A DNA stretch of 64,000 nt from Strigamia acuminata (Eukaryota), in the NCBI GenBank assembly GCA_949358305.1, contig OX442314.1, forward strand, positions 6,076,001-6,140,000. The letters are read 5' to 3'. This document shows positions 22,353-45,500 of the stretch, piece after piece (position 1 is the first letter of the stretch; the number at the start of each line of letters is the position of its first letter). The position numbers were made by a program, and so were the translations under genes. The notes below the pieces were generated by a model. It worked only from the letters and a program-made list of their open reading frames with translations, was not told the DNA's origin and did no database searches.

Positions 22353-22871
22353 CATTTTTATACTGTCGATGTCATCAGTATTGTTAGTTGCTTTCCAAAG
22401 CGTATCCATATCGTAAGTTGCGTTTTCAATTTTCATTAGTGCATCAAGCATGTGATCGCATGAAATGGATCCTGATGTTTGTTTATTTGCTATACGAATT
22501 TCTTCCCAAAGCCTATTCATTTTCTTTGTGTCTGTACTCCAGACCATTAAGTCTGGTAAAGTAACATTTTCTGATCTACTCGTTAGGTCGACAGCTGTAG
22601 GATAACTGAAGTAATGCATTATTCTGTCGTATGTTTGATATGAGAACATGCACGTGCAAAATGAGAATAAAAGCAGCCAAAAGATGTGATGTTTGCTCCT
22701 CCAACGTTTCCTATTGTTGACGAATTCTTCCAACCCAATTATATCGCAGTTGGGTTTGTTGGCATCATCCTTCATTAATCGGTGAATTGTCAGACGGAGT
22801 TGTCTTTTCCCTCTTTTGTATCTCCACATCAAATTATTATTTTCCATTATTTTGGTATCTTCCAAGCTCAT
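22350..22871 (-). pseudogene. DEG/ENaC copy 2: exon 1 only, fused to copia gag
   Basis: Close paralog of 7155-7676; upstream flank 22872-23090 matches 7677-7905; homology ends at the exon-1 donor position. Confidence 0.88.
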
Positions 22872-23148
22872 AGAGTTACTGAATGAGTTTGATCAAAGTG
22901 TTTGTTTGCTTGAGCAAACATGCAGAGGGACGGCCAACTGACAAACAAAAGATCATTTTTTTTTAACATTGGTTGGTTCATACGCCAGTAAAATCCATTT
23001 ATTGAGCTTTATGCTGTGATCGCTTGGCTACCCTCGGTGACCTGCACCACTACACACACCGCCTAGCGGCCCCAAGGCCGTCCCTCTTGCAGAGTTGACT
23101 GGCTTAGCTGGGGAGGAGGGAGCTGAGTGATGTAGTGAGAGAGAGACG

Positions 23149-24010: not shown

Positions 24011-25731
24011 TGTTACGTGGCCAAATGGCCAATAGTGACCACGTAACTTATTACTTATTTACTAAGACTCCTTTAGCTTCACTAATACTAGCTGAGCCAA
24101 AGAGTGACTTAATTAGCTAAGAGTGAAATAAAACACAGCCAGAGTTTAAGATTGAAAACAATACAGTGTCTTTATTCTTCAAATCAAAACACTTAAATCA
24201 TAAATACAAAATGTAAACTAAATCTAAACTTAAACCTAATAAATACTCTAAGATATGATTAACACTTTGATTCAATTTGGAGGGAAACAATCACACCACG
24301 CCATTTGCTGGCTGGTGCTAACTGTTTAGAAGCCCGGGATGGACTGAGTTCTAAGAGCCAAAGTGGCTCTTTTATACTAGAGTCACCCCCTGAGTTAATC
24401 CAGATTGACCAGCCCGTGATGTCACCATCACGTACGCTGGCTAGTGATAGATTTTGACAACTTCTTTAATTCTATCGCTGGTTTGAGCTGGTCGGCAGAT
24501 GACGCAACTCAACCGCGTGACAGCCCCCTCTTTAAATTTTTTGGTCTCCAAAAACCACAGTACTTTAGAATTTAAGCCAATTATTTTATATGCTAATCAT
24601 ACCTTAAAAATAATCAAATATATGAGTCCCACCCCAGTGTTAATCATATCTTGTACAGAAAACAATTTTCAATATTTCTTTATGCATTATAACAATTCAA
24701 CACTATTTTATCATACAAAACAACACTTTTTGGATTTTCTTTACATTTATATTACTTTTTTTCGTTTTTTAACATTTTTTATAACACTATAAAATTTATA
24801 TCTTAATTAAAATACAAAAAAAACAAAATATTTAAAATTAAAAGTTCATAGAAGAGGAGTTTTTAGCTTCTCTTTTTCTTCTTCGAATGGTTCCAAAGCC
24901 TTCTGATGCAACTCGTAAAGAATCCGGTGACGTAGATGAATCGGATGCGCATGGCGCATGTAGTCCCGGTCCACCAGATAGCGAAATAAATTAGAATTTG
25001 GTTGACCAATATCAATTGTAATTCAATGTATTTCTTATTGATTTCGTCTATTGCAACTACAATTTTGATTTACTATGTAAAATTCAAATTATTCTCTATG
25101 AACTAATTAATTATTCAATGTGAAAAATGTCCAAGTTAATAATTTCAATGCAGCTTCTTGAAAATCATTCGCATTAATTTCGTTTTCAAACTCTCCAAAT
25201 TTCCGCATCTCCACCACTTTGTTACGTGGCCAAATGGCCAATAGTGACCACGTAACTTATTACTTATTTACTAAGACTCCTTTAGCTTCACTAATACTAG
25301 CTGAGCCAAAGAGTGACTTAATTAGCTAAGAGTGAAATAAAACACAGCCAGAGTTTAAGATTGAAAACAATACAGTGTCTTTATTCTTCAAATCAAAACA
25401 CTTAAATCATAAATACAAAATGTAAACTAAATCTAAACTTAAACCTAATAAATACTCTAAGATATGATTAACACTTTGATTCAATTTGGAGGGAAACAAT
25501 CACACCACGCCATTTGCTGGCTGGTGCTAACTGTTTAGAAGCCCGGGATGGACTGAGTTCTAAGAGCCAAAGTGGCTCTTTTATACTAGAGTCACCCCCT
25601 GAGTTAATCCAGATTGACCAGCCCGTGATGTCACCATCACGTACGCTGGCTAGTGATAGATTTTGACAACTTCTTTAATTCTATCGCTGGTTTGAGCTGG
25701 TCGGCAGATGACGCAACTCAACCACGTGACA
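24011..25731 (-). mobile_element. Small non-coding LTR element (TRIM-like), 512-bp LTRs
   Basis: LTRs 24011-24522 and 25220-25731 (one difference seen); TG...CA; TSD ATAC; PBS TGGTGGAGATGCGG (tRNA-Ala-like, 25216-25203); PPT AAAGAGGGGG; ~700-bp internal region without a recognisable ORF. Confidence 0.93.
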
Positions 25732-27420: not shown

Positions 27421-29345
27421 ATGGGTTCAAATCCGCTCATAATCCAATAAGACCCACCACCTTCCCATTTGTCTTTTCTTGTCGTTTCATTTTGTTTTAA
27501 CGTCTTTTCATATCATTTTTACGTCTTTTTATGTCTTTTCATGTCTTTTATATCTTTTTATGTCTTTTATGTCTTTTATATTTTTTTATATCTTTTATAT
27601 CTTTTCATGTCTTTTATATCTTTTTATGTCTTTTATGTCTTTTATATTTTTTTATATCTTTTATATCTTTTCATGTCTTTTATATCTTTTTATGTCTTTT
27701 CATGTCATCTTTATGACTCTTCATGTTCTGTTTATGTCTTTCTATTTTTTTTTTTTTTTTTTATGTTTCTGGGAAGCAGGCCCAGCTGGCTTCCTTACCC
27801 AAAAACAACACCACGGTGTTGTATCTTCAGTTTTTTAAAGATACAATTTTAGAAACAATGTGGAAAAATTTGAATAGAATACTATTTCAGCTGGAATGGC
27901 TAGGCGTGTGCGATTATTTTCCAAGCAAATATGAATACGATTACAGTATTCACTTGGCAGCGCTAAGTCACAGAAGAAATTTATCGCATCGAAAAAGTGA
28001 TCTCGTAAAGCTTCAAATTCACGCCTGGTTCATGTAGGGGCCGGGGTCAGTTTAAACGGCGGAGGTCATAGGCAATAGAGGCAAAGACTGTAAAAATTGG
28101 CGTTTAAGAGAGAGTGGGAATGTGTGAGATCGAGGCGGACAAGGCGGTGGCGAAAACGTAAACCAACATTCAGCGGGAGTTTTGGGCGATATTGGATGAC
28201 GCTGAATCAGAAGTGTAGAATTTTTGTTATAAATTATCAGAAATTAGCCTTTGTTCCATTGATTTTGTATTTGGACACCTCAAAAGACTCAATAAAATTG
28301 TTCTCGACCCAAACAGACGTGGTTTATTTTCGGGAGAAAATCGATAAATCAGTAAATACAACTACAGTCTTTTTTCAACATAAATACGATTATAACGACT
28401 TACAAAAATTCAAAATTAGCACTGTAGCAGTTCAGTGAAAAGCTAAACATGTACAGTACAAATTATTCCTCAAGAAGATTGGCAAATTTAAAAAGGTACT
28501 CACACTTTATTGCCTGTTCAGTTGCAAAACCCACTCATTTAGTAAGCACTGCATATTTCATTCTGTAGAAATTGCGCGAGAGAGCTTTACGGCTGGCTTC
28601 TCTGCTTGACATCCATTCGATCTGATTGCGACATTGGTCGAAAGATCTCGGATTTTGGGCTGTTGACTCGAGCTTGGAATAAGACTGCTGTCTATCAAAT
28701 TCTAAACTTGTTTGCTCGTAACACAGTACAGTTTGGTGTGGCACTATAGTTTGGCTCGACTGACTAGCACCTGAATGCTATTGCTTTCTTTGAAATGAAA
28801 GTTTAAACAAGTTAGTGAATTTTACGATGTTTTTTATTCGTACTTAAAAAGGAGATTAATCATTCGAGAATTATATTTCCGGTGTTTTATTAATCAATAC
28901 TTTCGAGTTTTGCACAAGAAATATTAATAATATTTTGCAAAGAAATAAGATTACTTCTTCCATGCAATTGACACAAACGCCAGGAGCAAGTGAGCAATAT
29001 TTGTTCTATGCACATTAAAGGAGTTGTGACATAAAAATTTACGACAGGAATTAACGTTAACGTTATGTATTTTTATACGTAGTTATCAAATTTTCAGTCA
29101 AAAATTTGAAAACTGTGACAATTTTGTCAATATTAAGGGATTGCTCTTTGCGCTTCACTGCCTTGCTTCAAAATCACAATTCTGTGTTGGTGAGTACTGA
29201 CAAGTGAGCTGATGTGCAGCTCTGAATGAATGGTTCACAGACTTGGAACAATGATTGATCACAGACTTGGAACAATGATTGATTCACAGACATGGAACAA
29301 TGATTGGTTCACAGACTTGGAACAATGATTGGTTCACAGACTTAA
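27421..29345. repeat. Unclassified dispersed repeat, copy B (uninterrupted), ending in a ~25-bp tandem array
   Basis: Homologous to ~8700-16275 minus insertions; TTCACAGACTTGGAACAATGATTG ~5x at 29232-29343. Confidence 0.8.
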
Positions 29346-29599
29346 TGTAAATGTTTAATTTACACATGAAATTTACAAAGTGATTAAATTCAATGTTAAA
29401 TGTCTAATTTTTCTTCGATTTTACACCAACTTTACAAAAACTGTAAAGCTCACATTTCCACATTAACTTTTGGAACATTTACAATTTGTAAAGCCATATT
29501 TTTTTCCAGTGTTCAATTCAAAATTTGACTTACCGTTTTATCTAGTTGACGACTTCACGATGTTCACTGAAGTGATCGGATACCACATGAGTTTAATCA

Positions 29600-30197
29600 A
29601 AATGCAATTTTTTTTATTTGTTATTCATGTTTTCCAACAGTGAATTATTCACCAGATGTACTGTATAATTTCTAATTTCAAAGAAAATGAACTTTAGACG
29701 TTGAAGTTTCTTGCGTGAGTTTAATCTAAATGCAAAACATTTTATTTCTCTTTCTATGTCACGTTCCAAGAATGAATAATTAACCAAGTGTACGGTATAA
29801 TTTCTAATGTCAAAGAAAATCAACTTTAGACGTTGAAGTTTCTTGCGTGAGCTTAATCTAAATGCAAAACACTTTATTTCTCTTTCTGTCACGTTCCAAG
29901 GATGAATAATTAATCAAGTGTATGGTATAATGTCTAATGTCAAATAAAATCAACTTTAGACGTTGAAGTTTCTTGCGTGAGTTTAATCTAAATGCAAAAC
30001 ACTTTATTTCTCTTTCTGTCACGTTCCAAGGATGAATAATTAATCAAGTGTATGGTATAATGTCTAATGTCAAAGAAAATCAACTTTAGACGTTGAAGTT
30101 TCTTGCGTGAGTTTAATCTAAATGCAAAACATTTTATTTCTCTTTCTATGTCACGTTCCAAGAATGAATAATTAACCAAGTGTACGGTATAATTTCT
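29600..30197. repeat. ~130-bp tandem repeat, ~4.5 copies; diverged copies at ~8280-8520
   Basis: ACGTTCCAAG recurs at 29761, 29891, 30021, 30153. Confidence 0.92.
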
Positions 30198-32194
30198 GGT
30201 GAGGACATGTGCTCTTGAGGTCCCTCAGCCAGCCTGGGCAGTGCAGCAGTGCCCCAGTTGACTCTGCTCTTCTCCCATTCACCACTGTGATGCTCAGTGA
30301 CAGGGGAGATGTCCCTTTGCAGCCTCCATGAGCGGCTACATGGGCTGTTAGGTAAGTAACCACAGCAGAATGTCATATGCCAACCGACTACGTCACTCAC
30401 AGGACGGTTGTAGGTGTGGTGTGCCCTTTGGCACCAACACGGGTGATGGGTACTCCGACGCCTAGACAACGAATTAAAGGCCAAAACCAACAATCCGGAG
30501 TCCCTGTCTCCATTATTACTTGAAGGTCCAGTTCCACTAACGGTGATCAATCCCCAGATTACTGTGGGAGAGACGGCCCAACATCACAATAGCTTTGTAT
30601 TATTAGAATTCAAAATAATTGTAACTGTAGCAAAGTATCAGATGATTTGGTGTGAAAAAGTTTTACCACACCTTTAACTGCTGGGCACATACTGTCGAAG
30701 GATTTAAATCCTGAAAAGCTTGAAGTATGTTAGAGGCTAAAGTATTTTGTTTTCCTGGAAAGGTCAGAATCAAGTTTCGAGAAAATGTTTCATTTATCTT
30801 TTTTTTTGCAGCCACTGCCACGATCATGACCGCAACAGCCCGATAGTTGCGCACTTTGTTGGCGATTTTAAAGTATGCAGTGGATCTTTTTCAAACATTC
30901 ACGTGGATGCCCCTTTTGGATTAGTTCCTGAAAAAGCGAAGTTTTTTTTTTTTAAATTTTTATCAAAAATTTGAATTTCTTTTGTAAACATTGAACCGAA
31001 AGCATTAATTTTTAAATACTCGTAAATGAGGTGCAAAACAATATACACACATAAAAAACTTTTCTGGGGCAGACGATCCGTATAAAATGAAAATAGTGTC
31101 AAAAGAGCAACCCAGAACCTGTTCGTCACAATCGGGAGCCCACTCGATCATTTCGGCCAATCACAGTGCCCGGTCCCCAGAACTGCTTTAAAATACATCA
31201 GAAAAAAAACCAATTTAATTCAAATATAAAAATTGTAAAATATTATTTTAAAAAACAAGGCAATATTTTATTACCATTTAAACAAACATTTATTGATTTC
31301 AAATTACAGAAATGACATAATCCAACTGCAGAAACACAAATGGCCGCCAAACTAAAAACAAACGCATCATCTTGTCGTGATTCGACTTTGTGGTTAAAGA
31401 TAATAAATAATATACTCGGGAATACAATATACTTCAAATACTGCTTTATTAAAACACGCTTACTAATACAAATATGAGTTAAGATGTTTCCTGTGGTGGT
31501 CCTCGGATTCGGCTGCGAATACGAGTTGCCGCTAAACAATGGCGGATCCAATTGTTTAGTCCTACGCGTGGTCTGTGTTTGTTGTCTAGGGTATTTCCAC
31601 GTGTTATTATGAACACGCGAGAATTCGCTTTCTCGTGCGAATTAAACGAATATCGTTCGGATATTTATTCTAGCGTAGTTTGGCTACGCTAAATAAATGT
31701 GGCTGTTGTACAGTTGAATGGTCAGCGGGCACCGGTCCTCGATCAATCCGTGAAACGGCCTGAAAGGTGAGGTAAATGGTGCTCTTGCTGAAATGTGGTA
31801 ACTGTAGTGTCGTTTCCGGTCAGGCATTGGTGTTATATATTAACCGGAAATGACGTCATATGCAAATCCTTCTGATTATGCAGGTTCGCAGAAACACGAG
31901 ACTAGTCAGTCTAATCGGTATTTCTAGCGCGCTCTAGTGGCGAGTATTAATAACATGATAATCGTCACTAATTACTTCTTCAGGTGATGCCGAATCACCA
32001 CACGTCCCTCCCCGAGAATAAATCATCGGGGCCCCCCTTAAATAAAGGTGGAACAGTATCTTTAATCATAAATAATCTTTTTATTAAATGATGGTGAATG
32101 ATGAACAAAATATTTTACATTCTTGAGACTGATACATAAATAATTCCAGGGTTTTTTAGAGAAGACAGTCTTCTCGTTACGAATTTGTAATTAA

Positions 32195-34333
32195 TTATTT
32201 CTTCAAGTTATCGGCGTAACTTGGCTTATCTTCCGAACTTGGTTCGTCCAGGTTGGGAGATGTGGTCAATTTTGAAGAGTAGTCCGAGGGGTCTTCGCTC
32301 TCGTTCAAGTAGAACCGTAAGTGACCTGGCGCTTCCAGCGGATTCCCCGTTCGTTCGTGGGCCCAAATCGGCGGCAAAAAGGGCGACATCCCCTGATTGG
32401 TGTGATGAATTCTTTGGGCTTCGGCAATGCTGGTTGGCGCGCGATGAGCTCGGAGCAGTCGTTGATGTTGGATGAAGCGATCGCCTCCGGCTCCGGCTTC
32501 GATAGCGTTCTTCATCCAGACATAAAGAGAATAGCCACGGTCTGGGGTTTGGAGTAATTTTGTTTCAGTGTCCTTCGTCAAGGACAACCCCGGGAAGTAC
32601 ATCCGGAGTCTGGCGGCGATCTGAGGTTCTGCCGTCTTTGAAACCTTCATGCTCGATTTTGGGCGGAGCATTTTTCTTTTTGGTTCCTTCTTTTTGAGCG
32701 AGACTGGTTCGGCCAGTGGCTCGGAAGGTCTATTTTCCTTCGGCGGAGGCGGAGGAGGAGGCGTAGGATCCCTGGGAGCCGGAGTTCCCACGACTGGTGT
32801 GGTCACCGAAGATGACGGGAGCGGATGTTGAATGATCGCTCGAACGTTCTGGTACGAGGCCTCTGGATCCGGGTCCTGGGCCACCATTTGAGCTCGAATT
32901 ACTGCCGCGGAGGGCACCAGGCGTGCCCAGCTGTCTACGAGAGCCGGCGGGACTTGGAAACCCTCGTGGGCCACTACGATCCAGGCTGCTACAGCAACAC
33001 GTGCGTTTCGGAAGGTGGCGGCGGCCAGCAAAATCGACATCAAGTCGGTAATGGCAACCACGATCCTCGTATTCCAATTTGGATGATCCCGATTCTTGTT
33101 CTGCGTATATTCAATCGAGATCCGCTGAAGATTTGTGATGACGTTCTGGATCATGTTTTGTTGGTACGAATCCATTTCGCACAAAAGTGCTCTGGCCTGC
33201 TCCACGGTTGTGACATCCAGGAATTGTTGCAACGTTACTTCCGAAGGGTTGATTGGAGTCGAGGCTTGGACGACTGCTGGGGCTGGCAACATCGGATTGG
33301 GTCCCGTGGATGTCGTTGGCTGAGGCACAGATCTGACCAGACGTCTTGATTTTTCCGGTTCGGGCTTGTCCCAAACAATTGGAGTTCTCGTTGAAGTTGA
33401 AGCTTCGGGGATAGTTGGGAGAGGTTCGACTTTGGCTGGTCCAAAGCGAGCCTCTCGATGTTTGAGTTGTTCTTCAGAACTCAGTGTCGGTGCGCCGATT
33501 ATCACTTTCTTGCGAAAGGCGCTTGGGAGGCTGACGCTGGAGGTTACGCTTCCCGTCTTCGAGAGTTCTGGCTTGATGAAAGCGCTTGGCGCCGTTTCTA
33601 GACTCGAGGCGGTAGAGGGAGTCGGGCGGTAGATTGGTTTCGGCTGCATTTGTTGGTATTTCATAACCACCGCGAGGAGATCCGCCTGAGTATACATCTT
33701 CTTCTGCTCGGGGACCTCGTCGATAATTACCTCGTCGTCGATCTTCATTGGTTCGGGACTGTCCCGAATTGATCGTGTGTCTTCGTAGCGTTTCCTGTCT
33801 CGCTGTCGTATTTCCTCTTCACGATACGCTTTCCATGAACGTGTGCGACTCTCCGATCCTCTCCTTCTTCGATCGTCTTGTAGACGGAGGTTCTCTCGTT
33901 CACGTCGGGCTTTCTCATCACGTTCGCGTAGGAACTCCTCTCGGTGTCTGTTCCACGATTCTCTGTTTTCCTCCCGCCGTCTGAAGTAATTTCTACGATA
34001 ATCGTCCCAACTTTCTTGGTTCTTATCGCGTCGGCGCTGATCTTCTCGGCAGTCGGGGCGTTCGCGTACATTCTCTCTTCTTCGGCTGTATGACGGGGCG
34101 TCCCTGGATTGAAATCGTGATGTTTTTGGGATCTCAGTCTTCCCTAGGCGAGAGAAAGCGCTTGGTTTGGCCAGGCGTTTCTTTGTCGCGGGTTTCTTGT
34201 TCTGCGCGCTGCTGGAAGTGCTTGGCTTGTCCAGGCATTGTTTCTTTGCTGAGCAGCCTCCTTCGTCGTGCTCGTTGGAAAGACGTTTCTCGGCCTTCTG
34301 GCGTTTGCGACCAAAGAAACCTAAAAAGTGCAA
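32195..34333 (-). CDS. Gypsy accessory ORF (~710 codons) of unknown function; Arg/Glu-rich N-half, Pro-rich segments, likely entered by splicing
   Basis: Long open frame inside the element 3' of pol; no AUG for ~195 codons, but CACTAAT branch point and TTTTTAG acceptor at 34322-34321; AATAAA at ~32080; no signal peptide, furin/fusion peptide or TM anchor evident. Confidence 0.75.
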   Translation of the reverse strand: MHFLGFFGRKRQKAEKRLSNEHDEGGCSAKKQCLDKPSTSSSAQNKKPATKKRLAKPSAFSRLGKTEIPKTSRFQSRDAPSYSRRRENVRERPDCREDQRRRDKNQESWDDYRRNYFRRREENRESWNRHREEFLRERDEKARRERENLRLQDDRRRRGSESRTRSWKAYREEEIRQRDRKRYEDTRSIRDSPEPMKIDDEVIIDEVPEQKKMYTQADLLAVVMKYQQMQPKPIYRPTPSTASSLETAPSAFIKPELSKTGSVTSSVSLPSAFRKKVIIGAPTLSSEEQLKHREARFGPAKVEPLPTIPEASTSTRTPIVWDKPEPEKSRRLVRSVPQPTTSTGPNPMLPAPAVVQASTPINPSEVTLQQFLDVTTVEQARALLCEMDSYQQNMIQNVITNLQRISIEYTQNKNRDHPNWNTRIVVAITDLMSILLAAATFRNARVAVAAWIVVAHEGFQVPPALVDSWARLVPSAAVIRAQMVAQDPDPEASYQNVRAIIQHPLPSSSVTTPVVGTPAPRDPTPPPPPPPKENRPSEPLAEPVSLKKKEPKRKMLRPKSSMKVSKTAEPQIAARLRMYFPGLSLTKDTETKLLQTPDRGYSLYVWMKNAIEAGAGGDRFIQHQRLLRAHRAPTSIAEAQRIHHTNQGMSPFLPPIWAHERTGNPLEAPGHLRFYLNESEDPSDYSSKLTTSPNLDEPSSEDKPSYADNLKK

Positions 34334-34378
34334 TTAGTGCATTGCTCGTTGCGAGGAAATAAAACCATGTCTTGGCCT

Positions 34379-35310
34379 CTAATCTGGGCGGTCGGGTCGA
34401 TCGTCTCGGATTTGCTGGAGCCAAATCTTAATTTCCTCGGTCGAGTAACCGTCCGGCTGCAGATAATCGAAAACTTCGTCATGAGCGGTCCGCCTCACCT
34501 CCTCGTAATACGCCATATGGATTTCGTGTTTTTCTTCTTCCGTTTCGGCGTCGCGCCATTGCTCGTACACTTCCCATCCCCGTTGGTCGTCTGGAAAGGC
34601 GGCTCGTATTAGTGGATTCGGGATTGGCGCCGGCGGATCCATATTTCTCGAAATTACCGCCCGTAAAGCTGCTTGGTATTGGCGCGGCATGTAGTGGATC
34701 AACGTTTGCTGGCTCGACCAGTAGCGGCTGATCGCACGAGATAATAAAAGGCGAATTTTCCATGGTTCAAAGTCGACCGATTCTTCGAGCGCCTGTCGGA
34801 ACAGTATGGGGATGACTTCACGCCATAAGCTGCCTGCGGAAACTCTTTTCGGGTCGATTTGCCCCCACGTAGTGCGATATCCGTCCTAAATATTAGAATA
34901 TTAATAAATATATTAGGATCGTTGGTTAATTTGTCATATTTTTTTAGAGATTCTTTCGTCTAACGCAAGATGGCGTCATGGTCGGCCATGTGCTTTTCGA
35001 CCACGTGTCTTGAAGTTACTTTTTCTTTCGGCATTTGATTAATTTTGACAATTTGTCACTTAAAGTTAAATTCTTTCTTCGTTCGTGGTCAGTCCACGAA
35101 CTTATTTCGCATTTTTAATTATCGATAATTGAATTTTCCCTATTTTTTTTTTTTACTTACGTCGGGTTGGGCATCGGGTTCATTGGGTTCGTCCCAATTT
35201 CCCTCTTCGTTGTTTACGACTATTTGTAACAAATCTACTTGATCTTCATCGTCATCCTCGGAAACGTTGTTTAGGGCCCGTTCAATTTCTTTCTTCCAAT
35301 CGTTTCTCAT
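34379..35310 (-). CDS. Gypsy accessory spliced ORF, 2 exons, 218 aa, unknown function
   Basis: Exon 1 35310-35161 (ATG, 50 codons, acidic MRNDWKKEIE...), donor GTAAGT; acceptor TTTAG, exon 2 34885-34379 in frame (DGYRTTWGQIDP...IHYMPRQY...). Confidence 0.65.
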
Positions 35311-35531
35311 TTTTTCGGAAATTAATTTGATAATTTGATTTCACGGCTGCCTCGAGGTGATCGTCGCTTAGCCGGAGATGACAGTGATAAGTGTGGGTCG
35401 GGTTAGAGGTTAACTATTAGTCTCATGTCATCTTTGATTGGTTTGGCCAATTAAGACGCATTGTGGGACGTAACAGGTGTCCCCCCTGTGGTTGTTTTTA
35501 TCGATTGTTCGAGACAATGGCTGGAGTTGCT

Positions 35532-38500
35532 TTATTGTTTTCCGACGAGTTTTCCGTCTTTTATGAACGGGTTTGGCTTGTGTCGGCGCATACCGTATAT
35601 TTTATCAGGTTTGGGGATTCCTGTAGTCTTTTTTTTGTTTGATTGCTTTCCTTTTTTAGGAGATTCTTCGACTATTTCCTCCCTCTCCGAAATCTCATCC
35701 GGGGCGTCGGCCGTTTCGTGTAACTCATCTTGAACTAAATTGGTCGGGCCAGTTTGTTCATCTAAAAACATGTCGCGAATAATTGGATTTTGCGCTGGTT
35801 TCGTCTGATATTCCGTCCAAGCCTCTTGAGGAAACTCAGGTAAGTATGGAGTTAATTCTCGGGCGTGGATCGATCTAAAATTAACGTTGTCTGCCAATCT
35901 TTTTAGTTTGAAAGCGTTTCCGCCGTGGGCTTCGAGTATGACGTACGGGCCGTCGCGTTTGTCTGCTAGGCCTGCGTGGATCCCCTTATCGGCGCTGGAC
36001 TGAATATGTGTGTCTTTCCAGACGAGGTCATTGACTTTAAAATTGCAGAAGGGCCGATCCTTTCCAGCAATGCTAATACGATCTCTCATGTCGAATATGT
36101 GTGACATCATGTGCTGATACGTGGCCGAAATTATTTGCTCCAGTCTGTCGACATAAATATGAGGCTTCTCAGGATCAATTTCCAGTATTTCCTCCGGTAT
36201 TCGCGGGTCCCAGGGTACTCTGAGTTCCCGAGCGAAGTTTAGAAACGCGGGAGAAAATTTGCGGTTCCTTGAGATCGTTGTGCGGATGCTGAAGGCAATT
36301 TCACGAAGATATTCGTCCCAGCTGGAGTGAACATCGGTGAAAATTGCCAGTGCATATTTTATGTCGCGATTTAACCTTTCGACGGGATTGGCCCGTGGAT
36401 TATAGGTTGATGTGTATGATGTCTCGATGTCGAATTTTTTACAGAAGTCTTTATATAAATTTGACGCGAATTGTGGTCCATTATCGGAGATTAATTTTCG
36501 AGGGAATCCAAAATGAAGCGCCACTTCGTACAAACATCGAATGATTTTTTGCTTAGTTGGTCTCTCCATTGGAAATAGTTCGGGCCATCCAGTCGCGACA
36601 TCCATGATTACTAAAATATATTTGTTTTTATTGGATGACGTGGGTTTTGGGCCCATTAAATCCACGCTCCAGCAATCGAAGGGTGCGAAGGGGCCGAGTG
36701 AGATTCTTTCGTAATTCTTGGGCGTCCTAGGTTTGCACGCTTGGCATCTGGGGCAGTGGTGAATGAAACGAACAATATCTCGGGTCATTTTGGGCCAGAA
36801 ATAAAGTTGGTTCGCTCGGTAGATTGTTCTGGCCACTCCAGAATGTCCGGCGAGCGGGTGTCCGTGGACCATCCACAGAAACCTTGTCAGCAGACTCCTG
36901 GGTATAACGACTTTCATCGAAGTTCCCGTCTCCGTCAGATCATCGCGGAAATTCGGGTGGTGTTTTAGTAGAAGTCCATCCTCGATTAAGTACGTGGAGG
37001 CTTCTCTTTCGAATTCTTCGCGTTGGATTTCGTCGAAATTCTTGTCGGGAAATTTTTTATCTGTGATGAAGTCTCGATAAGTTTTACAGAAGTCGTCTGT
37101 CATTTGGGCGGCTATTAATTCGTCCCTGGTGGGCGGCTTGCTGTTCGTCCCCTTGCTTACGTGGGCGACGAATGCTCGAACGTACTTGTCGGAGATTCGA
37201 GGTTCTATCGTTAGCTCGTACTCTGGGTGAGCGTCCTTGACAGACTGGTACGCTCGGAGCCAATAATTGTAATAATTTTGGTCTCCTGACTCGAGTTTCT
37301 CCTTGGGTAATTCGTTTAGCTTCTTAAATTCCCATTTTCGAACGGGGTTCGGACAGTAGAAGAGGCGTGAGTCGTCCTCTCCGCAGTCGGTCTCGTCTTC
37401 GGGGTCTGAAGCTGGGGCTCGTGAGAGGGCGTCTGCCACGACGTTGAATTTTCCGGGTCGGTATTCAATGATTAAGTCACAAGCCATTAATTCTAGCTGC
37501 CAGCGAGCCATTCTTCCGGACGGTTCCTTCAACGCCATTAACCATTTTAGGGCTTCGTGGTCGGTTTGTACGTTGAACTTGGTAAATTCCAGGTATGGTC
37601 TGAATTTTCGGATTGCCCAGACAACGGCTAGACATTCTAACTCTGTCGCATTATAATTCTTTTCGGCTGCTTGTAATTTCCGGCTGATGAACATCGTCGG
37701 GACCTCTAATTCTACTCCGTCGATGTCATGCCTTTGAAGCAACGCAGCACCTAGGCCAATTCGACTGGCGTCGGTGTGAAGAGTGAATTCTCGATTAAGG
37801 TCTGGTAGGGGAATCCGTTTTACATCGATCAACATTTGTTTTATTTTGTTAAACGATGTTTCGCAGTGGTCAGTCCACTCGAAATCTTTATCATTGCGTA
37901 ACAGATCTGTGATGGGCGCCGCGACGTCTGCCAAATTTGGGAGCATCCGATTGAAGAAATTCACCATGCCCATGAAACGTTGGACTCCTTTTACATCTTC
38001 CGGGGCGGGGAACTGGCTAATGGCCTGGGTCTTTTTCGGGTCGATGGATAGGCCACCTGTTCCGACTGTGTAACCCAGGAATGCCAATTCTTTGCGGCAA
38101 AATTTACTTTTCCCTGGATGGATGTTTAGTCCGGCCTTTGTGAGTCGCTCCATGACGTCATTCACATGCATCAAGTGGTCTGTAAAGGTCTGAGAGACTA
38201 TTACTATGTCGTCAAGATAAGCCCATGCGTATTTGTGTAAGGCATCGCCGAGAACTTTTTCTATTAATTTTTGAAAGGTGGCGGGTGCGTTTACTAACCC
38301 GAAGGGCATTACATTAAACATCAGTCGACCCTGTGGTGCCCAAAAAGCTGTTTTCTCCTTATCCTCTTCCCGCAATTCAACCTGCCAGTAACCCTTGGAC
38401 AAGTCCATGGTCGTGACCCAGTTAAATGGGGCGAGTTCTCGTAAAATTGCTTCTATTGATGGCATTTGGATGGGGTCAATGACGGTTATGGCGTTTAAAG

Positions 38501-39611
38501 GTCTATAATCGATGCAGAGGCGCGGTTCGGAGCCTGGTCGCATGACGAGGACAATCCTCATTCCATACTCTCCGATGGCGTGCGACACGATGCCTTTTTC
38601 GAGCAACTCATTGCACATTGTTCTTACGATGTGTCTCTTCTGGGGATTCATAGTCTTAAAAGGCACTCGTACCGGTTTGCCCGTAACCAATTCGATCTCG
38701 TGCATTACGTAACTTGTCTTCCCTGGATCCTTATTTAAGTTCTTCGAGTGCTTCTTGAGCATTTCCTCGAGGAGTTTCGTTTGTTCTTCTCCAAGATTGG
38801 CGTCTACTGCCAGATTATGTATTAAATTCTCCTCCTGGAGGATAGTATTAAATGATTTAAAATTATAGTCTTGGATGAACTTTTTAATTTCGCCTCCTCC
38901 CCATTCCTCGTCGTCCTTAGCTTTGTCTAGGAGTTCCGAAGGTATTATGGGTAGTCGTGGGTCCTCGTGGTTGTCGATGTAATTCCACGAACGTGTGACT
39001 GGGTTGGGCTGGATGTTCATCCGTTCCATCAAATCCATTCCTATCAGCAGGATTGTGTCTCGGGTTGGTAACACGATGAAGAAATGCTTAATCGTGCCTC
39101 CTTCCCATACGAAATCGGTTGATAACGTCCCCACTGCTCTAACTTCTCCCGCTGCCGTAAGAACTCGAATATTCTCGTTCATTCCCCGTAATTTTTTCTG
39201 TATTTTTTCTTCGAGTGATTCGAATAAGTCGGTGGAGATAAACGACTGATCCGCTCCCGAGTCGAGTAGTCCCATTAACACCTTTTTGCCGAAAGAGACC
39301 GGTATTTTAGCCAGTACGCTCTTCGCTTCTGTTGATAGGTTGCAACGAAGTATTCGCTTTTTAAGAGGATTGGCCCCTTGGTCAAGCGGTAAAGTCATGA
39401 AAGCGTTGGCTATGCCGTCTTCGTCTCTAATTTCGAATTTCCGTTTTTTGGTTGGAGTTGTGACTTCCTCGTTGGCAGCTTCCTCGAAAAATTCCAACAA
39501 TTTTTTCATTTCTTTAATTTGTTTTTCCACTAGTGTAAGGTCCATCATTTTTGAAGTTATCGCGAGCGGATGTGGAATTATTTTTGTTCCGCCCGCGAGT
39601 TCCAGTTTTTT
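35532..39611 (-). CDS. pol: Gypsy Pol (PR-RT-RH-IN), -1 frame relative to gag
   Basis: LLDSGA, YLDD, LHTDAS/ELECLAVVW, HHCC zinc finger, VDLMGP/SDNGPQF/NPVERLNR, GPY; frame open back to the slippery site at 39611. Confidence 0.97.
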   Translation of the reverse strand, partial: KKLELAGGTKIIPHPLAITSKMMDLTLVEKQIKEMKKLLEFFEEAANEEVTTPTKKRKFEIRDEDGIANAFMTLPLDQGANPLKKRILRCNLSTEAKSVLAKIPVSFGKKVLMGLLDSGADQSFISTDLFESLEEKIQKKLRGMNENIRVLTAAGEVRAVGTLSTDFVWEGGTIKHFFIVLPTRDTILLIGMDLMERMNIQPNPVTRSWNYIDNHEDPRLPIIPSELLDKAKDDEEWGGGEIKKFIQDYNFKSFNTILQEENLIHNLAVDANLGEEQTKLLEEMLKKHSKNLNKDPGKTSYVMHEIELVTGKPVRVPFKTMNPQKRHIVRTMCNELLEKGIVSHAIGEYGMRIVLVMRPGSEPRLCIDYRPLNAITVIDPIQMPSIEAILRELAPFNWVTTMDLSKGYWQVELREEDKEKTAFWAPQGRLMFNVMPFGLVNAPATFQKLIEKVLGDALHKYAWAYLDDIVIVSQTFTDHLMHVNDVMERLTKAGLNIHPGKSKFCRKELAFLGYTVGTGGLSIDPKKTQAISQFPAPEDVKGVQRFMGMVNFFNRMLPNLADVAAPITDLLRNDKDFEWTDHCETSFNKIKQMLIDVKRIPLPDLNREFTLHTDASRIGLGAALLQRHDIDGVELEVPTMFISRKLQAAEKNYNATELECLAVVWAIRKFRPYLEFTKFNVQTDHEALKWLMALKEPSGRMARWQLELMACDLIIEYRPGKFNVVADALSRAPASDPEDETDCGEDDSRLFYCPNPVRKWEFKKLNELPKEKLESGDQNYYNYWLRAYQSVKDAHPEYELTIEPRISDKYVRAFVAHVSKGTNSKPPTRDELIAAQMTDDFCKTYRDFITDKKFPDKNFDEIQREEFEREASTYLIEDGLLLKHHPNFRDDLTETGTSMKVVIPRSLLTRFLWMVHGHPLAGHSGVARTIYRANQLYFWPKMTRDIVRFIHHCPRCQACKPRTPKNYERISLGPFAPFDCWSVDLMGPKPTSSNKNKYILVIMDVATGWPELFPMERPTKQKIIRCLYEVALHFGFPRKLISDNGPQFASNLYKDFCKKFDIETSYTSTYNPRANPVERLNRDIKYALAIFTDVHSSWDEYLREIAFSIRTTISRNRKFSPAFLNFARELRVPWDPRIPEEILEIDPEKPHIYVDRLEQIISATYQHMMSHIFDMRDRISIAGKDRPFCNFKVNDLVWKDTHIQSSADKGIHAGLADKRDGPYVILEAHGGNAFKLKRLADNVNFRSIHARELTPYLPEFPQEAWTEYQTKPAQNPIIRDMFLDEQTGPTNLVQDELHETADAPDEISEREEIVEESPKKGKQSNKKKTTGIPKPDKIYGMRRHKPNPFIKDGKLVGKQ
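39560..39611 (-). promoter_or_regulatory. -1 ribosomal frameshift signal (A AAA AAC plus downstream stem/pseudoknot)
   Basis: AAAAAAC at 39611-39605 in gag frame; TCGCGGGCGGA/TCCGCTCGCGA stem plus TGGAA/TTCCA complementarity. Confidence 0.8.
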
Positions 39612-42457
39612 GACATACTGTCGAATTTGGCGGTGAGTTCCTTCAAGACTTTTTCTTGCTCCTTAGCGAGCAATCTCACTAGCTCTTCTCTCTCTGCGGC
39701 CTTGTCGTCGGCTTTTTTCTTTGCTAATTTCGGGCAGGTCTGACGCCAGTGGCCGTCCTCGTTGCAGAAATTACAAGGGCTTTTCTTCTTTCCCTCCCGC
39801 ACAAAAGGTTTTTTGGGGTAGTCTTTCTTCTCAGAAGTCGCCTCTGTTTTCGGGTTGTGATGCTCCGATTTTCTGGACTTCATCTGAGGTCGGTAGCTGG
39901 GTGCCAGTTCCTTCCCCATGTTTGCATGTACAACCTCGTTGATACCTTCGTCGACCTCATCGCTTTCCGAGAATTGCTCAGAATCTTCGCTTATTTCGTC
40001 TTCCGACTTTTCCTCGGCGGCGTTAGTTTGCGTGCGATAGGCCTTATTTGGAGGTGGTAACGGGTTGGAAGCTTGTTGGTTTTTCTTTGAGGGGAGTGGC
40101 TCTATACTTCCGTTTAGATAATTTCGCGATTGGAGCAGCTTAGTGGAGTCTATGCTGCGTTCCTGTATTCGTTGCTGTCGAGCCACTCCTAGAGCTCGTT
40201 CTTCTTTTGTCAGATTTTCGTTATACCGAGCATTTACTTCGGTGTGTTTTTTCTCGACGAAAGCGAGGATGGCTTTGAAATTATCCCCTTTAGGAGCGTT
40301 CATTTCTCGTAGGACTTTGGTTGCGGTTTCGTTTAGTCCTTGTTCGAAGAGAGCTTTCTGAGCGTGTTGGTCAAATGGTTTGTCCATTTCACGGAACAGG
40401 CTGTCGGCTCGTTGTACGTACTCCCTCAGAGTTTCCCCGGGAGCTTGCTTCATAGAGCTTACTCTTTTCTGGATTTCTTGGCTCGTCTCGCCATATTGAT
40501 TGTGGAACTTTATGACGAAGTCTTCCCAGTTTCGGGGTTGGACATCAGCGTACCAGTTTCGGGCCCGGTTTATCAGCATTTCTGGTATTCCGCGTGCAAC
40601 CATTTCGTCGGGTTCCGCTCCTAGACGATTAATCGTCAGGGCGACTTCGTCCAAAAACAAGTTGCCAGCGTTCCAGGATCCGTCGAACTTAATTAGTCTC
40701 AGGGTCGTCCACTTGATGTTGTTATCCTTGCGAGAATACAGCCATCGGTCCGCGGAGTAACGTTTCAACAATCCTTCGCTTCGATCGTCTTCCTCGGTCT
40801 CTTGGCCACGGCTCTGTTGAAGTTTTTGGTCCATGGCTTGAAGGAGTTCGTCTTTCATCGTCCGTAGTTGGTTGCTTAGCGAGTCAGTCTCACTAGGCAG
40901 CGGTGATGATCGTGGATTGTCGGAAGGGAGGCTTGGGTAATGCGTACCGTTGCCTGTCAGTCCGAATTGATTGTGTTGGAACGACGTTTGTCCTGATGAT
41001 CCCACGGCGTTCGGATTATTCGTGAGGTCTTGCGCTACCGTTGAGTTATCGGGGTTCGATTTTTCCGGAGCGGAGGTTCGGCTCAACTTTGTTCCGGGCG
41101 GTATCAGATCGTCCAGTCGGGTCCCCGTGAGGCCTTCGTTCGTTTTTTTGATAAAAACATAGGAGTCTCTTCCAGCATATGCTTCGGCGGCGTGCTTCTT
41201 TTCGAGGTGATTTTTAACTGCGTTAATCTCCTCGAGCGTCGGCATGGCCAGTTTATTTCGACCTGCTTCGTTGCGTATCTGGTTCTTCTGATTTATACAT
41301 CTGATTAGTTCGGCGTTAGGGTCGCCTGAGTTGGTATTACTGGTTTGGCCAGTTTTCATTGCAAATGAGTTTTTTATTGCCCATGATTGCGCGCCCTGAT
41401 TATTCCTCCTATCCTGTATAAACGCCTCGTATAGTTCTCCTTTGACTTCGTCCGATTCGTTCAAGATGCTATCTAGTCCGTTGACTCGGATACTGCCGTG
41501 AGATGCTTGAGAGTCGATACTTTCACTGTCTGACGTTGCTTCGCCGCCGGTCTCGGACTGCTGTCGATCCGCTCCGACCCGACGTCGTTTCTCCCCGCGT
41601 CTGGCCGTGTTTTCTGCCGATCTTTTTTCAGTCCTCTGATTTACCAGGTCGATTACCCGGCTTAGTTCTGCGTAAGGATCCTTGTCCTGATCGATCTCGA
41701 TGCCGTGTGCGCAGGCCACTCGAGTTACTTCTATTGCTTTGGCTACCAGCTCCTTAGCTGTGTGAGACCGTTCTGGGGAGCTCTGTACGGAGTTTGGCTC
41801 CGAATGCTGGCTTAACCCGTTGCTTGGTGGCCGGATCTGGTAGTCCTTTGCCATTTCTCGTTCGATTATTCTTTGCTTCGCGAGCAATTCTCGAGCCAGC
41901 TCGCGCTCCATTGCCATTTGCTTTTCTTGGCTTTCACGGGCGGCCGCCATCTGCTTAGCTTGACGTTCTTGTGCCAAGTTCTGTTCCATGGCAGCTAATT
42001 TCTCGCGATGCTCTCTGGCTAAATCTTCCATCAATTCGTTTTTCTTCTTTTCCAATGCGGCTGTTCTCGCTTGGTCGGCTCGGGTAGCCTCGTTGATAAT
42101 TGCGGCGCCTGTGCTTGCCGCTTTATTTAGAAGAGTCATTAGATCCATTTCACTGGGATCCTTTTCGACTGGTCTGGGGCTTTTCAATCCGAATCGAGGG
42201 TTTTCGAACGATTTATTTAGTCTGTTTTCTTCGTGAGAGCTTCCTGATCCTTCGAATTCGCCTCCCGTGAACGGAAGTTGTCTTGCAAGGGGAAGGCCTT
42301 CACTTGATGATTCCGTTGAAACTTCAGTCGAGTTAGTCTCGACTTCTGGTTCCACGTGGTTCGCTTCTTCCGCTTTTTGGCGTTCGATTTCTTCGGCTTC
42401 CTTTCTCTCTTTTTCGTCGTTACGCCTTTTTCTGTCTTCCGCGGTAGTTTTCGTCAT
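39578..42457 (-). CDS. gag: Gypsy Gag, 959 aa, CCHC zinc knuckle
   Basis: Follows the PBS; capsid-like region (KFDGS...MKQAPGETLREYV); CNFCNEDGHWRQTC; long N-terminal coiled-coil/disordered part. Confidence 0.93.
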   Translation of the reverse strand: MTKTTAEDRKRRNDEKERKEAEEIERQKAEEANHVEPEVETNSTEVSTESSSEGLPLARQLPFTGGEFEGSGSSHEENRLNKSFENPRFGLKSPRPVEKDPSEMDLMTLLNKAASTGAAIINEATRADQARTAALEKKKNELMEDLAREHREKLAAMEQNLAQERQAKQMAAARESQEKQMAMERELARELLAKQRIIEREMAKDYQIRPPSNGLSQHSEPNSVQSSPERSHTAKELVAKAIEVTRVACAHGIEIDQDKDPYAELSRVIDLVNQRTEKRSAENTARRGEKRRRVGADRQQSETGGEATSDSESIDSQASHGSIRVNGLDSILNESDEVKGELYEAFIQDRRNNQGAQSWAIKNSFAMKTGQTSNTNSGDPNAELIRCINQKNQIRNEAGRNKLAMPTLEEINAVKNHLEKKHAAEAYAGRDSYVFIKKTNEGLTGTRLDDLIPPGTKLSRTSAPEKSNPDNSTVAQDLTNNPNAVGSSGQTSFQHNQFGLTGNGTHYPSLPSDNPRSSPLPSETDSLSNQLRTMKDELLQAMDQKLQQSRGQETEEDDRSEGLLKRYSADRWLYSRKDNNIKWTTLRLIKFDGSWNAGNLFLDEVALTINRLGAEPDEMVARGIPEMLINRARNWYADVQPRNWEDFVIKFHNQYGETSQEIQKRVSSMKQAPGETLREYVQRADSLFREMDKPFDQHAQKALFEQGLNETATKVLREMNAPKGDNFKAILAFVEKKHTEVNARYNENLTKEERALGVARQQRIQERSIDSTKLLQSRNYLNGSIEPLPSKKNQQASNPLPPPNKAYRTQTNAAEEKSEDEISEDSEQFSESDEVDEGINEVVHANMGKELAPSYRPQMKSRKSEHHNPKTEATSEKKDYPKKPFVREGKKKSPCNFCNEDGHWRQTCPKLAKKKADDKAAEREELVRLLAKEQEKVLKELTAKFDSMSKNWNSRAEQK

Positions 42458-42531
42458 TTTCTTGCGATATAATGATCGGTCGAAAGATCCCGGTTATTAT
42501 TTAAAGTTTTGTCGTAAGGTTAGCAAATTCT

Positions 42532-42549
42532 ATCCCGGACGGGCCCCCA
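42532..42549 (-). promoter_or_regulatory. Primer-binding site, tRNA-Pro
   Basis: TGGGGGCCCGTCCGGGAT, one mismatch to the canonical tRNA-Pro PBS TGGGGGCTCGTCCGGGAT, 2 nt from the 5' LTR. Confidence 0.9.
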
Positions 42550-45500
42550 CGTGTCGTGATTCGACTTTGTGGTTAAAGATAATAAATAATACACTCGGGA
42601 ATACAATATACTTCAAATACTGCTTTATTAAAACACGCTTACTAATACAAATATAAGTTAAGATGTTTCCTGTGGTGGTCCTCGGATTCGGCTGCGAATA
42701 CGAGTTGCCGCTAAACAATGGCGGATCCAATTGTTTAGTCCTACGCGTGGTCTGTGTTTGTTGTCTAGGGTATTTCCACGTGTTATTATGAACACGCGAG
42801 AATTCGCTTTCTCGTGCGAATTAAACGAATATCGTTCGGATATTTATTCTAGCGTAGTTTGGCTACGCTAAATAAATGTGGCTGTTGTACAGTTGAATGG
42901 TCAGCGGGCACCGGTCCTCGATCAATCCGTGAAACGGCCTGAAAGGTGAGGTAAATGGTGCTCTTGCTGAAATGTGGTAACTGTAGTGTCGTTTCCGGTC
43001 AGGCATTGGTGTTATATATTAACCGGAAATGACGTCATATGCAAATCCTTCTGATTATGCAGGTTCGCAGAAACACGAGACTAGTCAGTCTAATCGGTAT
43101 TTCTAGCGCGCTCTAGTGGCGAGTATTAATAACATGATAATCGTCACTAATTACTTCTTCAGGTGATGCCGAATCACCACAATCTTAGCGGATGAAACAT
43201 CGCTCACAACTAGCTAGGATGACTTTAGATCGTCTTAATACTGGAGCCAATCGATTCCCCGGCATAAAAGTAAACTATTCGATTTTTTTTATCTCTTCGA
43301 ATTCGACAGACGAGAATCGGAAAGCAGTCGCTCAAAGCGACGCGATTTGGCAAACAGGGACAGAAACACGACGAGGAGGCATCAGACCTTCGAACCAACA
43401 ACGGTGTGACGGTGACGACCACAACTCCCATTTAACAATGGTACCGGGAAGAGATCGCAATAAATAAACAGTGAATACAATACGAGATAAATACAAGACA
43501 GTTTATTGTTGGTAAACAATAATATCAAGGCTAAATTATACATAGGACTAATGCCGACATTTGGCAAGTTAAATCAGCTATTAAACTATACAAAGAATTG
43601 GCCAACTGGCCCTAGAATAATATCACTACGGGTCTGGAATATGGGAGCGGTTTCCCCATCGCTCGACCTGATTATAGATGTCATCTTAAGCCGGATGGCT
43701 GTGTCCTGGAGTCCGATACGGCTTCGCTGGTTTCCTTGGTTCGCTGTGTAAACTATCGCACGTCGATAAATCGAATGATCTGAGCATTGCGGTTGACTTT
43801 GTCTGCACCGCCACAACTTTGGGAGGATATTGGTGTAAGTAAATGTATTCATTTACTTATCAATATTCCACTTATGAATTATATTTAATTCATATCGTTG
43901 TGAATTCTTATTTAGATATTTTTGTGGATAAGTTGTCATCAACTTATCAGTTACATTTGCGTCTTTGATGTAATCGTGATCGTAATTAAGTCTTCTGACT
44001 TGGTTAATCAACTTGTCGCCAAGTTAATATTTAGCTGTTATAATAAAATGAAGATTAGGCTTCCCGTCGCAACACACAATTGCCGTCGAAAGAATATACG
44101 CCTTGCCATGCAGAACGGTATCAAGCGTCCCCGGCGTCGCAGCACGGTCGTCCATCGAGTGGTTGACGGTACCACGTACACAGGGGTCGATAGCTCGCGG
44201 CTCCGCACAGCAGTTTTATCTCTCGCGGTACTAATAATAGACCGACTGCTTTGGCATCGAATACCATGAGAATCAGCTTGCCAAACACTTGGTGCTACTC
44301 GTGGTTACTGTAAAACAGACTGCTTTGGCACCATCAGGTGAAGGAACCGATTCTCAACAATACCGATGCTACTCGTGGTAACGGAATACGTTCATACCGA
44401 AAAAGACAACTTGGTCCTGTCCGGAGGATACTGAATTGCACAACGGCGGGTTCTCCTTCGGCGTCGCAACCGTAGACTGTAACATTTATGCAACATAATA
44501 ATCCCAGCACTTCGACTTCAATTGCCGGCGGTGGCATGATTCTGTAGAATCATGCAACGGTTCTTTGCGAATAAATCAACAAAGAACCAAAAGGTTTTTT
44601 TACGTGAACAACGAATCATACTTCTTAAGTAACAATACCAAACAGAAATAATCAAACAGAGCTCCAGAATGGCCGGTTGTTTGGGTTTATATAACCTGAC
44701 TGGATTAAGGATTAATCCAGTTATCCAATTGGAACATGGGTTCCACGAATCCCTCCAATCCCGTATCACCGGAAGTGGATACGGAGGAACAATGTGCTAA
44801 TTCTCACCACAACCGGAACTGGATACCCAGGACCGGAAATGGATCCACCAATCAGATCTATTGGTTGATCGATTGATCACCAAATGTCCTGTCCCGCAGA
44901 AAATGGAAGTTACATTGTATTTAACATCACAAGACATTAATATATCTTTATATTAATGTTCACAAAGCTTCGTTTCATTCTAGTAAATATAGTTTTATAT
45001 TTATTTACATGTTTTATATTCATATCTTGAATTTGCCGCTAAATCGTAATCGCGCCATCTTGTGGCAACATTGCGCATTGACAAATGCGGTTTTAGCAGA
45101 CGACTCTTCGTGATTCGGCCGGAATCCTTTGATATCAAGTAGGAATGAGTGTTTATTCTTAATAAACGAACATCTTTGTATTTGAAACATCATAAATAAC
45201 TTTATTCCAGACATTTATCAGTTTTACACAGAATATCTTCGAGATATCATGATAATGGCGCAACAGCGCTTCTTTCTAAGAAAATAGGCATTTATAGCCA
45301 TTGTAAACCGTCACACATCCCCCTTAATAACACAATTATATAAAATTTTATAGAGTTTTCGTTATTCTCCTAATTAGCATAAATGCTATTTTCGGACTTG
45401 ATGTATCTTGGAGATACCGTGACTTCCAATTTCGAATTTGAGCTTACATAAACTAACTTGAATTATCTAAGTTCTGATTTTCTGCCGAAATAATCTTTTC

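Follow-up and report, generated by a model that had tools for sequence, protein, structure and literature searches.

A selected, non-Env third gene with a likely intron in a Ty3/gypsy element of Strigamia acuminata

The DNA considered here is a stretch of 64,000 nucleotides (nt) from Strigamia acuminata (GenBank assembly GCA_949358305.1, contig OX442314.1, positions 6,076,001 to 6,140,000; hereafter the window, in whose own numbering all coordinates are given). It harbors a Ty3/gypsy retrotransposon of 11,809 bp on the minus strand (31373-43181), in which about 3 kb between pol and the 3' long terminal repeat (LTR), the position of env, are coding DNA. Comparison with other copies of the family reveals that this third gene is one continuous reading frame (34885-32195), which together with a predicted first exon encodes a protein of about 946 amino acids (aa), and that in the window copy it is broken by two nonsense codons. 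A single protein encoded by two predicted exons is very probably the correct description of the gene. The complete reading that we favor, i.e. a selected non-Env gene, likely with two exons, whose likely nuclear product of about 946 aa acts on the RNA of the element and which is broken in this copy, is held tentatively, at slightly less than even confidence.

One reading frame in the family, two stops in the window copy

The following features make up the third gene and its 3' flank:

35161..35310, minus strand: predicted exon 1, ATG + 50 codons, acidic; diverged contigs still align with the initial 27 nt
34886..35160, minus strand: predicted intron of 275 nt, phase 0, GTAAGT...TTTAG, based on the splice ends and the pattern of divergence
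32195..34885, minus strand: predicted exon 2, a single 896-codon frame closed by a stop
34379..34381, minus strand: first in-frame stop codon, absent from the other copies compared
34334..34336, minus strand: second in-frame stop codon, where 99.9% or more of the summed depth from other copies departs from the window
32003..32194, minus strand: 3' spacer with AATAAA (32085-32080), a purine tract (32039-32032) and the polypurine tract (PPT, 32013-32005)

A sequence-only reading of the window had described a two-exon open reading frame (ORF) of 218 aa followed by a separate ORF of about 710 codons behind a strong splice acceptor at 34321. Both pieces are present, and the frame of 168 codons (34885-34382) is in the same phase as that of 712 codons (34333-32198), with the in-frame stops 34381-34379 and 34336-34334, 14 codons or 45 nt apart, lying between them. 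Their interpretation as two products did not hold, since it is the private stop codons of the window copy that split one frame and create the appearance of two ORFs.

The family was sampled in three public runs (X1, X2 and X3) that carry one species label and come from two studies, with 2,103, 847 and 265 contig records, respectively, aligned to the region; depth was summed over contigs and is not a copy number. The third-gene region is represented in these runs by 0.51, 0.44 and 0.29 of the sampled words, and because this coverage is partial, an exact copy of the window element is probably absent from them. Run X6 contributed just six short distant pieces, none of them in 34240-34540. No record that covers the first stop in X1, X2 or X3 agrees with the window there, and at the second other letters account for the whole depth in X2 and X3 and for 99.9% of it in X1. 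These sites are covered by 6-25 contigs per run and site, and a sense codon is found at either position in other family copies. The ORFs, which had been described as preserved in the window, are therefore broken precisely in that copy, the other copies compared being free of both stops.

Three alternatives were considered and rejected. A second intron ending at 34321 disagrees with the evolution of this stretch as coding DNA, with the absence of indels (see below) and with the lack of conservation of its AG: the A of the supposedly strong acceptor differs in 56, 36 and 65% of the depth in X1, X2 and X3, respectively, at a synonymous position. The donor at 34498, the only consensus-like one in a scan of 34885-34321, is of phase 0 and would lead to a stop 58 codons after 34320. 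Finally, a non-standard genetic code is at odds with gag, pol and the third frame, all of which end at ordinary stops, and with the other copies, which simply lack the two in question.

Purifying selection among copies of the family

Differences from the window were compiled as the 40 best supported of 834 over 31950-35650 and the 40 best supported of 106 within 34240-34540; since they are ranked by support and not drawn at random, the fractions given here should not be equated with a formal dN/dS. Among the best 40 of 106, which cover the region of the two stops, 33 of the 38 non-stop differences are synonymous (expected share for random change 0.30, p=5e-13) and 34 of all 40 occupy third codon positions; the synonymous share amounts to 10 of 11 non-stop differences in 34321-34381 and to 7 of 8 differences in 34382-34450. 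For the 712-codon part, 19 of 27 differences among the best 40 of 834 are synonymous, again versus 0.30 expected (p=2e-5). No indels are listed in 34240-34540, and contigs diverged by up to about 18% span 34245-34537 without a gap. Although the frame constitutes 77% of the compared stretch, 10 of the 12 indels listed (48 in total) fall outside it, and the remaining two, located inside, cancel out in a single contig. Judged from these patterns of substitution, the third gene is under purifying selection in the family. The claim that the env position holds non-env coding sequence with an intron is borne out in so far as the synonymous excess and the lack of Env features point to selected coding DNA other than env, and the splice signals make an intron likely.

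Conservation does not extend beyond the 3' end of the frame. In diverged contigs three alignment joints lead from the PPT region (32022-32034) directly to 32195-32213, so that the alignment is lost at about the position of the stop, and the 3' spacer is not conserved. The AATAAA noted earlier ahead of the PPT is indeed present at 32085-32080; its role as a signal was not confirmed. We rejected it as a proven polyadenylation signal, because the same hexamer arises in 20% of 20,000 shuffles of the 192-nt spacer, i.e. at chance level, and the spacer is not aligned in diverged copies.

How the window copy came to be broken

A change was regarded as private to the window if other letters made up at least 98% in all three runs. 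The private coding changes comprise five synonymous, five nonsynonymous and two stops, as compared with 15 synonymous and four nonsynonymous among the shared ones (Fisher p=0.056). Given the two mismatches between the LTRs, 0.5-16 changes are expected since insertion, and the 12 private changes fall in this range, near its top. Both decay of the window copy after insertion and its mobilization with the protein supplied in trans fit these observations.

The predicted intron and the block behind pol

The intron between the two exons (35160-34886) has canonical ends and stops in all three frames, and its GC content of 0.30 is below the 0.44 and 0.53 of the exons on either side. Contigs that span it carry 4-17 gaps, and one joint in X3 is aligned to 34890 and resumes at 35149, i.e. 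5 and 12 nt inside the intron, with the interior unaligned. No exact intron-less joint was found among 15 of the 22 joints, and contigs cannot show absence. From the splice signals and the divergence pattern we consider it highly likely that the third gene contains this 275-nt intron.

Upstream of it, diverged contigs keep the start of exon 1 (35285-35311) and a second segment at about 35395-35499:

35395..35499, minus strand: non-coding block after pol, kept in diverged copies; candidate internal promoter or second PPT

The block contains a purine tract (35487-35480) and CCAAT-box-like motifs at 35451 and 35441. Just after the pol stop, the PPT-like purine tract is followed after 4 nt by TG (35487-35466, minus strand), an arrangement that mirrors the junction of the PPT with the LTR, and it may represent a second plus-strand primer or a relic of an older LTR boundary.

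Architecture and lineage of the element

The remaining parts of the element are as follows:

42552..43181, minus strand: 5' LTR, 630 bp, defined by comparison of the LTRs, with TATA-like (43018) and initiator-like (42984) motifs, AATAAA at 42848 and 42629, and a donor-like GTAAG at 42642
42532..42549, minus strand: 18-mer resembling a primer-binding site (PBS), 2 nt after the 5' LTR
39578..42457, minus strand: gag, about 959 codons when counted from its first ATG, in the open frame 42493-39578
35532..39662, minus strand: pol frame with protease, reverse transcriptase (RT), RNaseH and integrase, open and with this order of Pfam domains
31373..32002, minus strand: 3' LTR, defined by comparison of the LTRs and by the ATCT duplication

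The LTRs (630 bp each, TG...CA) are identical at 628 of 630 positions, a target duplication of 4 bp (ATCT) lies on either side of the element (31369-31372 and 43182-43185), and a PPT-like purine tract lies 2 nt ahead of the 3' LTR. The insertion splits a repeat, whose uninterrupted version is found at 2434-2982; together with the duplication, it fixes the boundaries of the element. Gag contains one CCHC knuckle (a Pfam match below the cut-off of that family), and pol, whose top match in the PDB is the Ty3 Gag-Pol (E=2e-101), is in the -1 frame relative to gag. With its LTRs and target duplication, the order of pol domains, the PBS and the PPT, the element belongs to Ty3/gypsy, and the previous description of near-identical LTRs with clean gag and pol is accurate, both frames being open. 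The overlap of gag and pol presumably includes a slippery-like heptamer near 39611-39605, and the PBS we take to be complementary to a tRNA-Pro-like primer; the window contains no tRNA genes. The donor-like GTAAG of the 5' LTR is situated 13 nt before an LTR AATAAA (42642-42624, minus strand), where it could suppress polyadenylation in the 5' LTR.

The nearest relatives of pol exhibit merely 40-45% identity across RT-RNaseH. In a FastTree phylogeny of 118 RT-RNaseH sequences (117 of 120 matches met the length filter, with no labeled Osvaldo, Ulysses or woot references among them) the element forms a long branch (0.91) next to 12 unlabeled pols (support 0.98), and a tick protein is found in one cluster among these 12. 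An RT search of viral contigs gave no matches, and metagenome contigs yielded one distant element (L001, RT identity 37%), which lacks a long ORF after pol. An Osvaldo/Ulysses-like affiliation had been expected from integrase motifs; the N-P-V-E-R motif of the integrase is common to many matches, and the label fails on the length of the LTRs (630 bp versus about 1-2 kb) and on the primer, presumably tRNA-Pro-like here and tRNA-Lys in that lineage. In Culex, LTRs of Osvaldo/Ulysses elements measure 997-2055 bp, those of woot-related ones can be shorter, and the PBS is invariably complementary to tRNA-Lys (PMC3286476).

The protein encoded by the third gene

In the numbering of the exon 2 frame, the protein can be divided into the following segments:

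about 1-168: helical block (weak single-sequence models)
193-240: basic clusters
about 256-385: Arg-rich mixed-charge region, then a Ser/Thr/Pro linker
about 550-690: helical block, then a poly-Pro/basic stretch
about 755-830: helical block, then an acidic tail

This composition agrees with the earlier description of an Arg/Glu-rich and then Pro-rich product with basic clusters resembling nuclear localization signals (NLS) and without Env hallmarks. Residues 256-385 include 38 Arg, 5 Lys and 34 Asp/Glu in 130, with 20 RE/ER/RD/DR pairs, and the charged fraction per 60 aa peaks at 0.65 with a ratio of 22:17 (phosphoserines uncounted), compared with 0.52 in gag and 0.45 in pol. With such a composition, a role in the nucleus or in binding RNA is the obvious one to suppose, and from the same features we consider the product to be probably a nuclear protein.

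Hallmarks of an envelope protein are absent. Exon 1 lacks a hydrophobic stretch that could serve as a signal peptide (top 19-residue hydropathy -0.55, by hydropathy scan only), and the protein of about 946 aa has four Cys, a single N-glycosylation sequon and a polar acidic tail with no C-terminal transmembrane (TM) anchor. One borderline hydrophobic 19-mer (hydropathy 1.84) occurs at residues 607-625, and the R-x-K/R-R motif is found solely within an Arg run.

Homology searches returned no relatives. The frame read with X at both stops had no matches in Pfam, PDB or NCBIfam. For the 712-aa part a comparison with 7,988 candidates (391-1246 aa) yielded no relative, and neither did a full HMMER scan of 1.84 billion cluster representatives; for the 168-aa part none was found among 35 candidates, all of 92-294 aa, longer proteins not being covered. 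An Atlas search with both parts gave no usable match, viral contigs gave no match to the 168-aa part, the two PHROGs matches at E ~0.05 were judged as noise, Rfam produced no matches, and tblastn revealed no similarity between the third gene and the gag and pol of the same element. Single-sequence AlphaFold models are weak, with predicted local distance difference test (pLDDT) values of 57 and 43, and show all-helical blocks in the N-terminal and central parts and close to the C-terminus. Using these weak models, no Foldseek match was obtained at E<=0.001 (only the first model was compared with the PDB), and the VIA fold search gave a top Z of 6.0 for generic helical bundles.

Known systems and a proposed function

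Non-env ORFs after pol are an already known kind of gene, described in rotifers, in plant Retand elements and in a review (PMC6431247). The closest functional parallel is CERV of the C. elegans element Cer1, a large orphan protein translated from a spliced mRNA, without which unspliced RNA is not exported (PMC10309623). The third-gene product likewise is a large orphan accessory protein with a predicted spliced message, three predicted structured domains and a likely nuclear location, and the genomic RNA, which in Cer1 keeps working splice sites, would by prediction do so here. In contrast to CERV, which possesses a G-like domain and a Cys-rich loop, the window protein has few Cys and an Arg-rich mixed-charge region, and the two show no sequence match; export is demonstrated for CERV and is proposed by analogy for the protein considered here. 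ORF3s of the bdelloid rotifer elements Vesta and Juno share with it the position after pol, the non-Env character, the restriction to a family and an animal LTR element as host. They encode, however, GDSL esterases, DEDDy exonucleases or TM/coiled-coil proteins of 210-230 aa (PMC5408684), whereas the window protein has about 946 aa, no enzyme motif that we could find and a predicted intron in its coding region. Plant Retand and Ogre elements resemble the window element in that pol and the 3' LTR are separated by 3-6 kb, in which ORFs of possibly regulatory role are located (PMC11963269, PMC12786077, PMC6431247), and Ogre retains a functional intron (PMC12786077), as is predicted here. The Retand ORFs, however, are antisense TRP28 genes, as opposed to a sense gene without a Pfam match in an animal. 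The env of errantiviruses and sORF2 of the mdg1 group are also extra genes of animal Ty3/gypsy elements (PMC13524379, PMC13486581); the third gene differs from the former in lacking a signal peptide, a TM anchor and the Cys pattern, and is far larger than the FAST-like sORF2. Finally, foamy-virus tas and bet are spliced accessory genes beside the 3' LTR with an internal promoter, for which a candidate exists here (PMC13220597), yet they belong to a retrovirus with env and exhibit no sequence match. In the literature covered, which was partial and excluded the sequences of Repbase, Dfam and GyDB, neither this family nor any animal gypsy element with a large ORF3 in sense orientation that contains an intron was found.

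According to the mechanism that we propose, the 275-nt intron would be spliced out of a subgenomic message that starts either at the LTR, with the GTAAG at 42642 as candidate donor, or at a promoter just past pol. The basic clusters would mediate entry of the protein into the nucleus, and the Arg-rich mixed-charge region could direct it to sites of splicing or export, as Arg-enriched mixed-charge domains are reported to go to nuclear speckles and to affect mRNA export (10.1101/771592). The protein would then block splicing or license export, allowing unspliced genomic RNA to leave the nucleus, and such protein-licensed export would explain how the intron survives reverse transcription. By analogy with CERV and Rev, a regulator of RNA splicing or export is the possibility that we put forward, tentatively, as the best guess. 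The further idea that an undescribed animal Ty3/gypsy lineage has independently evolved a regulator like those of complex retroviruses, namely an orphan nuclear protein, about 950 aa long and equipped with an SR-like mixed-charge domain, that is encoded by a separate transcription unit with an intron, is speculative and rather doubtful.

Several considerations weigh against the reading of the third gene as a selected gene whose product acts on the RNA of the element. The lists of differences cover only the best 40 of 834 and the best 40 of 106, and exon 1, with just two listed differences, one synonymous and one nonsynonymous, contributes little to the coding evidence. The private changes of the window copy are not distinguishable from neutral (p=0.36), the two nonsense codons 45 nt apart form an odd cluster, and recent insertion despite a broken third gene may mean that the gene is dispensable in cis. 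Retention of an intron needs no regulator encoded by the element, as in Ogre and EVADE (PMC12786077). The mixed-charge region, despite its similar look, reaches a peak of 0.65 and stays under the published cut-off of at least 0.7 charged in 60 aa at a positive to negative ratio of 1:1 +/- 0.3 (10.1101/771592), and the protein has neither a detectable homologue nor a recognizable fold.

The main rival explanation, which we regard as unlikely, is that the same single gene acts as a transcriptional regulator, expressed from an internal promoter after pol and serving as a Tas-like trans-activator of the LTR or an anti-silencer. The block 35499-35395 kept in diverged copies, with its CCAAT-like motifs and purine tract, would suit such a promoter, no strong acceptor with a pyrimidine tract turned up in scans of the interval from pol to the ATG, and acidic N- and C-termini with NLS-like clusters would be in keeping with an activator. 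Precedents are the foamy-virus Tas and Bet, which are reported to arise from an internal promoter and by splicing of a pre-mRNA (PMC13220597), and the antisense ORFs of Retand, proposed to be DNA-binding regulators (PMC11963269). On the other hand, no DNA-binding domain was detected with Pfam, PDB or NCBIfam, CCAAT motifs are short and common, and the long Arg/Glu/Asp region would suit RNA bodies better than DNA. We find it also rather improbable that the protein is a cytoplasmic helper of the ribonucleoprotein or particle (an RNA chaperone, granule former or adaptor for transport or integration) or a cargo with effects on the host. Non-specific RNA binding is within the capacity of basic and low-complexity regions, poly-Pro may bind adaptors, and non-env ORF3s are functionally very mixed (PMC5408684); the lack of similarity to gag and pol, the absence of a zinc knuckle or capsid match and the several NLS-like clusters speak against it.

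The splitting of the gene in a sub-lineage represented by the window copy, so that one product has 218 aa and another is made by splicing onto 34320, is highly improbable. The low probability that two stops arise 45 nt apart by independent chance is its only remaining support, although the window does have a branch-point-like motif, a pyrimidine tract and an AG before 34320, and LTRs that differ at just 2 of 630 sites. The first stop is found in no other copy compared, and no more than one record, of low depth, has the second; the AG varies among copies at a position where the change is synonymous, the sole consensus-like donor is out of phase, and the 12 private coding changes fit the 0.5-16 expected after insertion. 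A divergent Env or another fusogen is scarcely credible: the position after pol, the likely spliced expression and the borderline 19-mer (607-625) would be compatible with it, whereas the lack of a signal-peptide-like stretch and a C-terminal anchor, four Cys in 946 aa, a single sequon, and no Pfam, PDB or viral-fold match (the fold models being single-sequence and of low confidence) argue against it.

Other repeats of the window

About 220 bp from the 5' LTR of the gypsy element begins a 1,912-bp direct repeat (43404-45315 and 53896-55807; 100% identical copies 10.5 kb apart), between the copies of which lie an orphan frame of 365 codons (47415-46318, no Pfam match at cut-off) and a piggyBac-type transposase (53218-51320, PF13843). 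The pair may mark an LTR-like or composite element of very recent origin, or else result from a duplication. A duplicated block (2975-7775 and 55805-61658, about 87% identical) contains amiloride-sensitive-channel-like frames (5661-6485, 59543-60364); within one frame a C-terminal-like channel segment precedes an N-terminal-like TM segment, which by eye looks like a permuted or repeat-borne piece of a gene. These channel-like frames and the piggyBac-type transposase by themselves point to a probable animal host. A copia-type element in several frames (18882-22892, minus strand; RVT_2, SH3 and beta-barrel matches) adjoins a copy of the repeat 7153-7904, and a 512-bp direct repeat (24011-24522 and 25220-25731, 99.8% identical, 1.2 kb apart) possibly represents the LTRs of a small non-autonomous element. 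Tandem arrays are located at 17010-17449 (20-nt unit), 29588-30218 (about 130-nt unit), and 9943-10272 and 27500-27743 (T-rich units of 9/10 nt); the T-rich arrays lie within a duplicated block.

Conclusions

The history of this element illustrates that a single young copy can mislead, as its private stops mimicked a design with two genes and regulated splicing. The helical blocks of the third-gene product may be new domains, given that the 712-aa part has no relative among 1.84 billion representatives. CERV is one solved case of how unspliced genomic RNA is exported despite working splice sites. If the proposed role is true, the regulator blocks splicing or licenses export, so that a non-coding intron persists through each round of reverse transcription. 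With its high diversity, and with an orphan gene of 2.8 kb and a 275-nt non-coding intron maintained under selection, the family offers a natural system for testing the repeated origin of such regulators.

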